Shown: positions 4,243-46,170 of the stretch, one piece after another | How the letters are laid out: each line of letters begins with the position of its first letter | Position numbering within the stretch: the first letter of the stretch is position 1 | Source of the DNA: Ylistrum balloti | Lineage: Eukaryota | Assembly: GCF_031769215.1 (NCBI RefSeq) | Contig: NW_026782349.1 | Span: forward strand, 303,634-367,633 | DNA length: 64,000 nucleotides | Direction of reading: 5' to 3' | Made by a program: the position numbers and the translations under genes | The notes under the pieces: model-generated | The model's database searches: none | Told to the model about the DNA's origin: nothing | What the model saw: the letters and a program-made list of their open reading frames with translations, nothing else

Positions 4243-4297
4243 ATGGATACATCAAGCAGCAGTCTTTTATCCAAGTGGTCAGTGAAGCCTTCCTCTG
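4243..4297 (+). CDS. TEP1: TEP1-like exon 1 (coding part): MDTSSSSLLSKWSVKPSS, ends phase 1 at donor G|gtatgt
   Basis: ATG at 4243 follows the acceptor ttttttag|CC at 4205. Donor gtatgt at 4298. The G left in phase 1 plus GT at the start of the next exon gives Gly, in frame with exon 2. Confidence 0.65.
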
Positions 4298-5238
4298 GTA
4301 TGTATCTAAATACCTCTCTTTAAAAATTATTACCTGGACTGATTTGCACACTGAATTTTACAAGTACTGTTCACAATAGACAGGTGTCTTATTATAGAGA
4401 CAGATGCCTTCAGTATACAGCCTTACAGGTGTCTTATTATTACTGATATGCCTTCAATACACAGGTGTCTTGTTACAGGCATAATGCTATGTCCATAGCA
4501 ACAGATGCCCTCAATACACAGGTTTCCTCACAATAACTGTACAATGATTTATGACATATGTGCCCTTTGTATACAGGTGTCATAGCAGTGTGCAATAATG
4601 ACAGGCATCCTTATACAAAGGTGTCTTTCAACAGATATACAAAGAGGACAGGTGTACCTGTACATGTCAGTTCCCCATATATACAGGTGTCTTATAACAG
4701 ATATAGAATATTTATAATCAACAGAAGTACAGGAGTACTCTAATGAGGTGCCCCGTAACACAGATGCCCTAAAAAAAAACACACCAAAAAACAGATACCC
4801 TATAATAAAAGTAAAGATGTAACCTCTAACATATGCCTTAAAAGGTACTCATATGTCTGTAACTATGATAGATATACTGATGTGAACTGCATAACCAGTG
4901 CCCTTTTTGCAGGTGTTTCACTGATCATTACAACAGAATAGAAATTCTTATAACATAATCAGTAGAAGATTAGAGTGTGACATTTTGATAACTACATGGC
5001 CACTATCATCAGACAAATGACCAATGTGGAGTGTACTAGCACTGATGTACATAGTGTACAAGATGGTACAGAATTAACCAACATTTTTGGCTGTACTATA
5101 ATTCTAATTACACTAAGGTTGAAAATAGTGTTAACAAGTTGGTAAACAGATTATAGCCAAAAGTACACTGTCTAATTAAGTGTTGGTTACCTTGATAATC
5201 TGATGATGTGAATAAACCTTGATCGTTATTTCCTGTAG

Positions 5239-6149
5239 GTCTCTCATTGACAGGAGGGAGTTCTTCAGGGCTGTCATTGACAGGAGGGAAATCTTCAGGG
5301 CTATCATTGACAGGAGGGAAATCTTCTGGGCTGTCATTGACAGGAGGATTGCAGTCTGGGCTCTTGTCCTCTTTACAGTCAAAAACATCCTCTTCTGATT
5401 ATGGCAAACGAGGAAAGCATAAGATCCCCACAACAGAGACAGTTGTCGCTGAAAAGAAGAAAAACAAGCTGGAAGACAGTTGCTTAAAGACGACACCATC
5501 TCTACTGTCAGGTAACCTTGGAAACAGTTCTCTCCTGCAGACCTCGAGTCTTCAGAGTAATGTAGGTGGGCTGAGTCTGTCAGGACAGAGTTCACTCCTC
5601 TCTACCTATAGTCTCAGGAGCCAGTCAACTTCTAAGACATCTATAATGACAAATGGCTTATCCAAACTCCAGACTCCACCAAATCCTCAGGTGTCAACAA
5701 CACTGATTGGGAAATCTTCTTTGACTGGATCTTTATCAACAGGTTTTTCATTGTCCCATGGATCTATTGTTACGGGTACTTCAAGCTTACTCTGTCAACA
5801 ATCTTCTGCTGAAAAGTCTTCGATGCTTAATACATCAGGTTTGTCCACAAATATGGTGTCAGGTGCCACAAAGCTTTCACATAGCAAGAGTCCAGAAAAA
5901 AGGTCACATGACCAAGCATCTGCGAAGAAGGGTAAATCCAAAAAGTCTAAATCTAAGGGGATAATTACTGAAGAACAGATGCAGATGCTGGCAATGAAAC
6001 GGTACAAAATTGTGACACCAGAGTATGACCTTAGTAAGGTGCTCAAGAATTCAATGGACACCCCGGTTATGGATGATTTTATGGAGGTAGACAAAGATCC
6101 ATTCCTGAACAGGATTCAGGTACCTCTCCATGATGTCAATGGAATGAAG
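5239..6149 (+). CDS. TEP1: TEP1-like exon 2: N-terminal 10-aa repeats (LSLTGG[SK]SSG x4), S/T/L-rich low complexity, start of TROVE region
   Basis: Acceptor tttcctgtag|GT. Open frame matches ORF 5247..6164. Donor AAG|gtaggg. The displayed line 6121 has 61 letters, so the end is +/-1. Confidence 0.8.
5243..5362 (+). repeat. 30-bp coding direct repeat x4 (ctgtcattgacaggagggaaatcttcaggg) encoding LSLTGG[SK]SSG
   Basis: Direct tandem copies inside TEP1 exon 2. Confidence 0.9.
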
Positions 6150-6504
6150 GTAGGGAATTATTGATATGTTCGTTAAGCTTTCAGGTGTAAAAGATTAAAC
6201 CAGAACCAGTCATTTCTATCAGAAATGTCATGGCTTGTTGCCTTTAGACCTACTAATTTTTATGTTATATTAATGTTTTATGGTATTGAATACAAATTAG
6301 GGTTCAACAAATGAAAGATTATTGTTGTCCACAGAAAAATGCATCTGTTGTTACACAAAGATAAAACATAAATATTCTAAGAGGAACGATTAATTCATTA
6401 ATGTAAACAATAGAACTGCATCATTGTAACAATAAATGTTCACATAATATATATGATTACCTTTACAAAGTACACACAATATAAATTGTTGTTTCTCTTT
6501 ACAG

Positions 6505-6639
6505 CTGGCTTTCATTAATGCTGTAAGTGGATCCCTCATTTGTCAGCCAAATTTTAGAAACTCCAAGGACTTGACCAGAATATCCTTGAGTGCTATGGCT
6601 GAAAGAGTTGTGCCGTATGATCCAGAGTTTATCCTCAAG
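6505..6639 (+). CDS. TEP1: TEP1-like exon 3 (TROVE): LAFINAVSGSLICQPNFRNSKDLTRISLSAMAERVVPYDPEFILK
   Basis: Acceptor ctctttacag, donor AAG|gtcagt; 135 nt, phase 0. Confidence 0.8.
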
Positions 6640-6857
6640 GTCAGTGATAAGCATTACTGATCAGATACAAAGAATTATCTGAGGACTTAATGGAATATAT
6701 AATGGCCCCAATTCCCAATAAATTATCAAATTTTCATAAGGGAATATATTCACTCTCCTAGTTGACATCAAATATTTGATATTCTTCCCTCCAAAATTTG
6801 CTAACAGAACTATTTGACATGAAAATTTGTCACATATAGATCTGATGTGTTTTTCAG

Positions 6858-44734: not shown

Positions 44735-44830
44735 CTCACCTGGTTGGAAAGACACCATGGTTCATTATCCGAAGTCCGTTCGACGCCCGTTTACTTTTTT
44801 ACCTAAAATCACTACTAGTCATGAACAACT
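44735..44830 (+). other. tRNA-like fragment (tagctcacctggttgg … ccgttcgacgccc … ttttt), possible tRNA-derived SINE head / pseudo-tRNA
   Basis: D-loop-like TAGCTCAnnTGGTTGG, T-loop-like GTTCGA and an oligo-T run are visible. No cloverleaf was verified. Confidence 0.25.
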
Positions 44831-44869
44831 GAAATAACTTTGGCCAAATTTGGTCAGAAGCATCCCTTT

Positions 44870-45480
44870 CAGGGAAATAAACAAAATTTTGGTTCTCAGC
44901 CCCAAAGGCCTGAGGACAGGACCCTGAAGGGGAAATTTTGCAAGTTATTTAAAAACTAAATCCACTTGTATGAATGAATGGATACTGCTGAATTCGGTCT
45001 CAATCGTGCTTTGGTGAAGGAGAATCATTTTGTATAAACTGTGGGTTTCAGTCCTTTGGGGAGGGAGAGGTGGGGCCTAGTAGAGGAAAAAGACCAAATT
45101 CTTTAAAATCCTACTCTTCCTACTTGATTTGGTCTGAAGCATTATTTGTGAAGGTAATTCAATTTTGTGTGAAGTGTAGGTCTCTTTAGTCTCCCCTCGG
45201 AAGAGAGGGGCAGGGCCCAATAGGGGAAATAGAGCAAATTTTTCAAAATCTTTTTTCTTCTGTAGAAATATCAGGATACTATTCTGATTTGGTTTGAAGC
45301 ATACTTGGGTGAAAGGAAATCAATTTTGTATGAATAGTGAGTCTTGGCCCTCTTGGGCAAAGCTAAATATTGGCAATAGAGGAAAATTTCTAAAATCCTT
45401 CTTTTGTGGGAATGCCTTGATTCTGTACCAATTTGGTCTGAAACATACTTAGTTGAAAGAAACCTCGTCTTGTATGAACC
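44870..45480. repeat. Degenerate ~145-bp tandem repeat x4 (…ccaaattctttaaaatcctactcttcctacttgatttggtctgaagcat…gtctcccctcggaagagaggggcagggcccaatag…)
   Basis: Last TEP1 intron; possibly SINE-body-derived. Confidence 0.7.
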
Positions 45481-46032
45481 TGGAGCTTCCTGTTTGTGTC
45501 ACATGACCTTTGACATGATTGTCTACATCAATTTTCACATGTTACCTCTGATATTGGATAAGCATTAGCATTCTTGTTTTCTGACATTTGTCTTGATACC
45601 GTACTTATGTTTTGACACTAGGTCAAACATTCTCATTAAGGATATTTCACCTTTAATAATGTATGTCTTCTCTATGACCTTTGACCTGTGTGTTTTGTGA
45701 TATTTGACCTGTAATACTACAAGTTTTAGTTCTATTTTCATGACTCTTGACCCTGGTCAAGCATCCTTGCTTTGTGATAATTGACATATATCTATGTCTA
45801 ACTTTGACTTGATTTTAACAATTTGTATTGTTGGCCTTTGTTTGACCAGTGACAAAGTTAATTTACATCAGTTTATGATACCTTGTGATACTTGACAGTG
45901 TGTATTTCTCTTATTTTAACACTATGACATTCTCTGTTGACCTTTGAAGTTTAATGATGAATCTTTATGCTTACGTCAGATGATGTGAATAGATTAGAGC
46001 TATTTATAATCATTGAAAAAATGTTGTTTCAG

Positions 46033-46170
46033 GTGGGATTGTTCTTCTGTCCTGCTCCAGTGGAGAGTATCGCCATTATCAGCCAATCAGCTTCAGCTGG
46101 GAAATCTGTGGTTCGTCTTGTCTGTGGTGATCAGCTTGGCAACATCCACTTTCTCACCTGGCGCCAGTAG
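46033..46170 (+). CDS. TEP1: TEP1-like terminal coding exon: VGLFFCPAPVESIAIISQSASAGKSVVRLVCGDQLGNIHFLTWRQ* (stop TAG 46168-46170)
   Basis: Acceptor gttgtttcag; in-frame stop; phase continuous with exon 53. Confidence 0.75.
   Translation: MGLFFCPAPVESIAIISQSASAGKSVVRLVCGDQLGNIHFLTWRQ

Follow-up and report, generated by a model that had tools for sequence, protein, structure and literature searches.

We analysed a 64,000-nt stretch of the genome of Ylistrum balloti (contig NW_026782349.1, positions 303,634 to 367,633 of the forward strand; hereafter the window). Positions 4243-46170 of its + strand very probably constitute a single intact gene of 54 exons that encodes a 2750-amino acid (aa) orthologue of TEP1 (telomerase protein component 1), a vault-associated protein that binds RNA and cleaves NAD. 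The encoded protein combines a TROVE domain, a vWA-like domain, DUF4062, a probable STAND ATPase and three WD40 propellers, an architecture found in TEP1 alone. A first-pass annotation had proposed 54 phase-consistent exons and a product of about 2750 aa for this interval; our independently built model gave the same numbers and is open throughout. The observation and its interpretation were essentially correct, with corrections regarding the N-terminal repeats, the MIDAS motif and the NACHT score. Coordinates below refer to the window and, where no strand is given, to its + strand.

Gene model and homologue support

The window has an AT-rich, minisatellite-rich background with short GC-richer open segments, in eukaryotic style. 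Genes were modelled by dynamic programming, in which codon log-odds, trained on 33 clearly protein-like segments of the window, were combined with splice-site matrices for every GT/AG pair between 3000 and 48000. Masking was applied to open reading frames (ORFs) derived from minisatellites (e.g., 10598-11623, 25494-26291) as well as to a transposase ORF (19480-20541), none of which belongs to the TEP1 gene. The gene finder returned one chain on the + strand, leading from an ATG at 4243 to a stop finishing at 46170. A second pass yielded 57 exons. Three short exons (35896-35928, 37975-38004 and 45052-45153), each with a length that is a multiple of 3 nt, were dropped because they lie opposite gaps in the alignment with a TEP1 fragment of Elysia marginata (P0241). 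The curated model comprises 54 exons and 53 introns, all of the GT-AG type, and a coding sequence of 8253 nt that ends with TAG (46168-46170), translates into 2750 aa and contains no internal stop.

The best database match of the N-terminal (TROVE) query was a partial protein of the oyster Saccostrea cucullata (P0121; E 1e-269), and E-values for the C-terminal (WD40) query reached 2e-223. Together with the difference in GC content between exons (45.6%) and introns (32.8%), these values make a chance origin of the gene model far-fetched. The best named matches of both queries were TEP1 or p80 proteins. For the DUF4062-NACHT query, the top match was unnamed, and the named matches following it were TEP1.

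The oyster protein, recorded as 'telomerase component p80-like, partial', aligns end to end with aa 1-963 of the model at 54% identity, both RG-rich exons included. Model and oyster protein share the start MDTS..LLSKWS. The oyster locus (GCA_032062105.1, contig JAVVLV010008468.1, 1-18468) consists of 16 exons, and each of the 15 introns between them lies within 0-2 aa of its counterpart among introns 1-15 of our model. The oyster annotation differs from the gene described here in that it covers the TROVE and vWA part only. It is partial because its contig stops 262 nt after the last exon, and its shortness thus reflects the contig end rather than biology. Upstream, on the opposite strand, the oyster gene is neighboured by a CAMSAP-like (CH domain) gene, of which no counterpart was found in the flanks of the window.

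The remainder of the protein is covered by further homologues, which are colinear with aa 347-1237 (P0122), aa 552-1539 (P0123), aa 1814-2583 (P0243) and approximately aa 1555-2750 (P0241, 39% identity). Jointly with P0121, these fragments tile the entire protein in order. Exons 5, 11, 27, 41 and 51, whose junctions the first-pass annotation had singled out for confirmation, follow the order of the homologues when compared as protein. In a common 150-aa part of the TROVE domain, identity amounts to 77% for oyster, 68% for limpet, 60% for amphioxus, 46% for octopus and 41% for deer. These values point to a bivalve or near relative, and the 54-77% identity to oyster to a mollusc outside the oyster family. 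A full-length TEP1 of about 2,600-2,750 aa was not found in the protein database, in which the longest TEP1-named match measures 1,228 aa. The public annotations of mollusc TEP1 that we encountered are fragments of 940 aa (oyster), 1228 aa (Elysia) and 427 aa (limpet).

Domain architecture and RG-rich TROVE loops

The five motifs on which the first-pass domain assignment was based (MAMLRNLRN, CDIGPSM, FISSTFRDM, GKPGTGKS and LLIFIDGVD) all occur on the + strand in the expected places. Exon 1 (4243-4297, aa 1-18) carries the ATG at 4243, and its product MDTSSSSLLSKWS matches the oyster start MDTSGKSLLSKWS. Exon 2 (5254-6149, aa 19-317), given by the gene finder and colinear with P0121, encodes a disordered, Ser/Gly/Leu/Thr-rich N-terminus and the beginning of TROVE. 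No Pfam family matched the N-terminal 317 aa, and the equivalent oyster region is predicted to be disordered, with a pLDDT below 50. The N-terminus contains GLSLTGGKSS decapeptide repeats (5268-5345), encoded by 3.7 copies of a 30-bp tandem unit (TRF, 5237-5347). This coding repeat could differ in length among individuals.

The TROVE domain (PF05731, 350 bits) spans aa 316-784. It continues through exons 3 (6505-6639, aa 318-362), 4 (6858-7019, aa 363-416), 5 (7303-7399, aa 417-448), 6 (8175-8425, aa 449-532), 7 (9109-9242, aa 533-576), 8 (9765-9922, aa 577-629), 9 (10496-10605, aa 630-666), 10 (12022-12112, aa 667-696) and 11 (12668-12830, aa 697-750), and ends in exon 12 (13416-13596, aa 751-811). 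Exons 6 and 11 encode the variable loops 1 and 2, respectively. All of these exons are supported by the gene finder and the P0121 alignment, and exons 3-8, 10 and 11 also by the oyster exons. The motif MAMLRNLRN (10516-10542), located by motif search in exon 9, occupies nearly invariant columns of a 91-sequence alignment. From this alignment, P0121 of the oyster was modelled with AlphaFold as a proxy (pTM 0.65, core pLDDT above 90). The model matches Ro60/TROVE structures with E-values of 2e-12 to 3e-9 and target-normalised TM-scores of 0.55-0.70, and the stronger Ro60 matches extend beyond the TROVE ring. At the sequence level, TROVE proteins of solved structure were matched weakly (E 3e-6).

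Directly after TROVE follows the vWA-like DUF5920 (PF19334), which at 38.2 bits exceeded its cut-off of 27. The vWA-like part starts in exon 12 with CDIGPSM (13531-13551) and proceeds through exons 13 (13986-14138, aa 812-862), 14 (15263-15352, aa 863-892), 15 (15512-15654, aa 893-939) and 16 (16095-16166, aa 940-963), all four supported by the gene finder, P0121 and the oyster exons. Exon 17 (16521-16682, aa 964-1017), which encodes the end of DUF5920 and a linker, was given by the gene finder and is colinear with P0122 and P0123. The oyster proxy contains an alpha/beta domain at confident pLDDT, which matches vWA folds weakly, both by E-value (about 3e-3 to 4e-2) and by superposition score.

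Judged on the proxy model, the N-terminal module resembles the fold of Ro60 and Rsr, RNA chaperones composed of TROVE and vWA domains. Ro60 measures about 540 aa and has a complete MIDAS motif. Unlike Ro60, which is devoid of NADase, ATPase and WD40 parts, the module of the window protein continues in frame into about 1750 aa of further domains. Membership in the Ro60/Rsr group was rejected on account of this continuation and of DIGPSM in place of DxSxS.

Exons 18 (17190-17366, aa 1018-1076), 19 (17938-18180, aa 1077-1157) and 20 (18331-18565, aa 1158-1236) encode DUF4062 (PF13271, 60 bits), exon 20 its C-terminal part. In two preprints of 2026, DUF4062 is described as a TIR-like NAD+-cleaving (NADase) domain (10.64898/2026.05.01.722283; 10.64898/2026.09.04.749371). 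The motif FISSTFRDM (17209-17235) lies in exon 18. In a search of solved structures, the DUF4062 region had human TEP1 as its sole match (PDB 11gz, TIR-like domain; E 2e-65, 47% identity). The resulting alignment supports all three exons, exon 18 being covered by Pfam as well, and contains three short gaps of 1-2 residues each. In human TEP1, R908, R954 and R976 coordinate an active-site sulfate ion, the only role described for R954, and the R908A and R976A variants are reduced in activity (bioRxiv 10.64898/2026.05.01.722283). The catalytic residue is E1008 (10.64898/2026.05.01.722283; confirmed in 10.64898/2026.09.04.749371), and among the human DUF4062 proteins TEP1 alone was active on NAD+ (10.64898/2026.05.01.722283). 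All four residues are kept in the window protein, as R1031 (human R908) in exon 18 and as R1077 (R954), R1099 (R976) and the predicted catalytic E1131 (E1008; GAG, 18098-18100) in exon 19. Judged by its sequence, the domain, with its catalytic Glu in place, appears to keep the prerequisites of the predicted NADase.

A DUF4062 TIR-like domain ahead of a STAND ATPase also occurs in NWD1, NWD2 and NPHP3 and in bacterial DUF4062 defence proteins ('NIR', Swarozyc, Avs). These proteins share with the window protein an NLR-like logic of effector, then switch, then sensor, and many bacterial DUF4062-NACHT proteins match its middle part at 30-40% identity. In contrast to the window protein, they possess neither a TROVE-vWA RNA-binding module nor the TEP1-specific propellers. 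An NWD1/NWD2-type protein, with an N-terminal DUF4062 and no TROVE, was rejected as a description, since DUF4062 comes after a stretch of about 1000 aa that contains TROVE.

A probable STAND ATPase is encoded in part by exon 21 (18850-19032, aa 1237-1297), which contains Walker A, GKPGTGKS (19000-19023), and is supported by motif search, Pfam and the curated model. It extends over exons 22 (20888-21063, aa 1298-1355; gene finder and P0123), 23 (21591-21738, aa 1356-1405; gene finder, motif search and curated model) and 24 (22111-22287, aa 1406-1464; gene finder and curated model), with Walker B, LLIFIDGVD (21652-21678), in exon 23. Exon 25 (22899-22991, aa 1465-1495) was given by the gene finder together with P0123 and P0332. 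A winged helix (HTH_NWD1, 39.5 bits, above cut-off) is encoded by exons 26 (23307-23439, aa 1496-1539; gene finder, Pfam and curated model) and 27 (24101-24278, aa 1540-1598). From exon 27 onwards, all exons are supported by the gene finder and the P0241 alignment, with the curated model as a further source for exons 45 and 48. Exon 28 (24522-24631, aa 1599-1635) leads to an APAF1-like helical domain (APAF1_C, 39.2 bits, above cut-off) in exons 29 (25117-25205, aa 1636-1665; also Pfam), 30 (26124-26238, aa 1666-1703), 31 (26570-26675, aa 1704-1738) and 32 (26996-27164, aa 1739-1795), the last of which includes the domain end and a linker.

Between exons 21 and 22, a Tc1/mariner-type DNA transposon (19247-20745, + strand) resides within intron 21 (19033-20887). 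Its terminal inverted repeats of 24 nt (19247-19270 and 20722-20745) are 96% complementary, and an open stretch of 354 codons (19480-20541) matches DDE_3 and HTH_Tnp_Tc3_2/HTH_23. Its insertion leaves the two flanking ATPase exons, the first of which encodes Walker A, undisturbed.

The C-terminal part (aa 1796-2750) showed many Pfam WD40 matches. The first-pass annotation had estimated about 20 blades; by eye, we counted 21, which would form three seven-bladed propellers. Blade 1 is encoded by exon 33 (27720-27815, aa 1796-1827), and WD40 sequence continues through exons 34 (28363-28487, aa 1828-1868), 35 (28738-28887, aa 1869-1918), 36 (29199-29304, aa 1919-1954), 37 (29842-29961, aa 1955-1994), 38 (30299-30397, aa 1995-2027), 39 (30909-31056, aa 2028-2076) and 40 (31468-31574, aa 2077-2112), where the blade reading is an additional source. 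For exons 41 (31999-32153, aa 2113-2163; TEP1 second propeller), 42 (32674-32782, aa 2164-2200), 43 (33996-34115, aa 2201-2240) and 44 (34490-34597, aa 2241-2276), Pfam contributes. The WD40 exon 45 (36312-36465, aa 2277-2327) is followed by exon 46 (36684-36835, aa 2328-2378), an acidic insert within blade 13, and by the WD40 exons 47 (37604-37815, aa 2379-2448), 48 (38496-38565, aa 2449-2472), 49 (38814-38932, aa 2473-2511) and 50 (39141-39308, aa 2512-2567). Exons 51 (40040-40157, aa 2568-2607) and 52 (40429-40614, aa 2608-2669) contain divergent blades, exon 53 (40867-40974, aa 2670-2705) blade 20, and exon 54 (46033-46170, aa 2706-2750; also Pfam) the last blade and the TAG stop. Two TEP1-specific families scored far above their cut-offs, namely Beta-prop_TEP1_2nd (PF25047, 244 bits vs 89) and Beta-prop_TEP1_C (PF25048, 130 bits vs 32), the latter including exon 54.

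The proposed identity as TEP1 is supported by these propeller families, by human TEP1 as the sole solved-structure match, by the named database matches and by the introns shared with oyster. The claimed agreement with vertebrate TEP1 appears to hold as well: in human TEP1, TROVE is likewise followed by a vWA-like domain, DUF4062, a STAND ATPase (including winged helix and helical domain) and WD40 repeats arranged in three propellers (10.64898/2026.05.01.722283).

In contrast to human TEP1, the window protein carries two RG-rich loops within TROVE. Tract 1 (RGRGQPRGRGRGRGRGRGRGG; 8255-8317, aa 476-496) is encoded by exon 6, which also comprises Lys-rich and acidic Ser/Asp-rich portions, and tract 2 (GRGRGGGTRGAGRGA; 12724-12768, aa 716-730) by exon 11. 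The two tracts sit in the two variable TROVE loops. They are written in mixed synonymous Arg and Gly codons and are not a DNA microsatellite. Since exons 6 and 11 measure 251 and 163 nt, their removal would shift the frame, and neither can be skipped in frame. Oyster carries both tracts, the limpet fragment P0220 carries tract 1 and ends before loop 2, and the octopus homologue lacks them. In the oyster model, pLDDT is below 50 in loop 1 and, for about ten residues (700-709), in loop 2, whose flanking blocks reach about 55-63.

We aligned 120 homologues (P0121-P0240) and scored a loop as RG-rich if it contained at least three RG/GR dipeptides. This threshold was reached by 9 of 105 sequences in loop 1 and by 22 of 100 in loop 2. 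The positive homologues comprise oyster, limpet, the bdelloid rotifer Adineta and many metatranscriptome or protist-like sequences. The only vertebrate among them is a turtle (P0211), which barely qualifies with three RG/GR dipeptides in loop 1, in agreement with the earlier remark that RG-rich segments are not a feature of vertebrate TEP1. The tracts are not peculiar to the window gene and recur across the TEP1/p80 family. They are real and probably selected. Their most likely role would be that of disordered loops inserted into TROVE that confer non-specific RNA affinity or offer sites for arginine methylation. A more ambitious proposal is that they represent a selected, functional auxiliary RNA-binding or arginine-methylation-regulated module that was gained or kept repeatedly within the family (molluscs, a rotifer, many protist-like sequences) and lost in vertebrates; we consider this tentative and rather unlikely. 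If true, it would indicate that vault RNA is held or loaded differently outside the vertebrates. A literature search on RGG in TEP1 yielded nothing relevant.

Weighing of the assignment

Several observations weigh against the assignment to TEP1 or against details of the gene model. All 53 splice junctions are predictions from genomic DNA and protein homologues. The donor site of exon 13 scored as weak. The acceptor of exon 27 at 24101 has an in-frame rival at 24083 that would add 6 aa. Within its 30-bp coding repeat, exon 2 offers an equivalent choice of in-frame acceptor at 5239 or 5254, so that the length of the protein may be either 2750 or 2755 aa.

With respect to the domains, the TEP1_N 30-aa repeats (PF05386) had no Pfam match in the window protein. 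A blastp comparison of its N-terminus with that of deer TEP1 gave E-values of 0.13 or worse. The 'TEP1-like N-terminal repeats' of the first-pass annotation thus exist as 10-aa repeats, but we rejected their identity with the mammalian TEP1_N repeats. Compared with human TEP1, the window protein has a disordered Ser/Gly/Leu-rich N-terminus of about 300 aa in their stead. Among the listed matches of the N-terminal query, PF05386 was carried by the mammalian P0212 only; TEP1_N therefore looks like a mammalian addition that does not define the family. The MIDAS position reads DIGPSM (13534-13551) in the window protein and SDCSDRM in oyster. Neither is a full DxSxS, and such degenerate sequences argue against a functional MIDAS motif; of the proposed 'vWA/MIDAS-like part', the vWA-like domain stands and the MIDAS does not. 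Likewise, both Walker motifs of the proposed NACHT ATPase were found, but Pfam NACHT (PF05729) scored 17.3 bits, below its cut-off of 26.7, and AAA_16 25.5 bits, below 32.6. Of the suggested domain profiles and their order, TROVE, DUF4062 and WD40 were borne out in Pfam, and NACHT scored below threshold.

Scans of the whole 64-kb window with Rfam and for tRNAs found nothing, including no vault RNA, and there is therefore no vault RNA gene adjoining TEP1. MVP and PARP4 lie outside the window, and the presence of vaults is a genome-wide matter beyond these 64 kb. A literature search on mollusc vaults found nothing relevant.

Of the alternatives to a TEP1 orthologue, a lineage-specific TEP1-like paralogue that is not the one-to-one vault orthologue fares best, and we regard it as improbable. 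Some invertebrates have several 'TEP1-like' entries, such as P0008 and P0141 on one chromosome of Branchiostoma floridae, and our view is limited to 64 kb of the genome. Against a paralogue speak the complete TEP1 architecture, the intron positions common to the oyster gene and the taxonomically sensible order of identities over the 150 aa compared (oyster, limpet, amphioxus, octopus).

An unexpressed or decaying copy that still appears intact is very unlikely. Minisatellites have spread heavily through its introns, which also harbour the Tc1/mariner element, and its intactness is judged from genomic DNA; every insertion is, however, intronic, no stop or frameshift interrupts the 8.25-kb frame of 54 exons, canonical splice sites are used throughout, and both the Walker motifs and the NADase residues pointed out for human TEP1 are retained.

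Least probable of all, and very unlikely, are two or more adjacent genes on the same strand, for instance with exons 1-17 as a TROVE/p80-like gene and exons 18-54 as an NWD-like DUF4062-NACHT-WD40 gene: the annotated oyster protein ('p80-like, partial', 940 aa) is TROVE-only and TROVE-less DUF4062-NACHT-WD40 proteins such as NWD1 and NWD2 are known (10.64898/2026.05.01.722283), but the former is partial merely through its contig end, the WD40 part matches TEP1-specific propeller families, the phase is unbroken over exons 16 to 18 with neither a stop nor a new start required, and a split is disfavoured because P0122 and P0123 cross the TROVE/DUF4062 border as single ORFs, P0123 continuing into the ATPase. 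Phase continuity and these border-spanning ORFs indirectly suggest that all domains of the TEP1 orthologue would lie on one transcript.

Genomic surroundings, proposed working and significance

Minisatellite arrays with units of 13-158 bp occupy about 9 kb, or about 27% of the intron sequence, between 7642 and 43354 (e.g., 10688-11611, 14456-14920, 25546-26099, 33005-33585, 34748-35700 and 41006-43354). They make up most of the long introns, and several yield long spurious ORFs. The last intron, of 5058 nt, contains a 2.3-kb array with a 55-bp unit. A 47-bp minisatellite with 6 copies (13582-13860) starts within coding exon 12, in its final 15 nt. The exon-intron junction (GGCAAACCTAGACAG|GTA) recurs in this array, and the intron therefore contains several decoy donor copies; the copy directly past the real exon 12 donor reads into an in-frame stop.

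Downstream of the gene, two tandem arrays were found at 47745-49806 (units of about 97, 55 and 42 bp, about 2 kb) and at 61581-63998 (30-bp unit, about 80 copies, reaching the window end), the latter with long ORFs on both strands. Between them, on the - strand, lies a non-LTR (LINE-type) retrotransposon (51675-56874) with two long open frames. ORF2 (51675-55208, 1177 aa) encodes an apurinic-type endonuclease and a reverse transcriptase, and ORF1 (55192-56874, 560 aa) shares 17 nt with it. As both frames are intact, this copy may be young. No gene was recognised in the window flanks, where ten ORFs had no credible Pfam match.

The working model proposed for human TEP1 is the most likely one for the window protein, whose activity, RNA binding and vault residence we infer by analogy. 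A small non-coding RNA of the vault type would be held by the TROVE ring, which is Ro60-like, together with the vWA-like domain, and the TIR-like domain would serve as the NADase effector. Oligomerisation driven by the STAND/NACHT-type ATPase together with the winged-helix and helical domains would switch the NADase on. The three propellers with their 21 WD40 blades would act as an autoinhibitory or sensor module and as a docking module inside the vault, and the protein would stay inactive as long as they sense no signal.

The window gene is well supported, belongs as expected to an animal gene family that is already known, and by itself opens no new question. TEP1 has newly been recast as an NLR-like, NAD+-cleaving enzyme in the vault particle by the 2026 preprints, and a curated full-length invertebrate orthologue is therefore useful for comparison. 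The RG-rich TROVE loops are flagged as a recurring non-vertebrate feature and represent a minor lead. As far as can be read from the gene, the full architecture appears to be conserved from molluscs to humans, and the NADase residues pointed out for human TEP1 are conserved as well.

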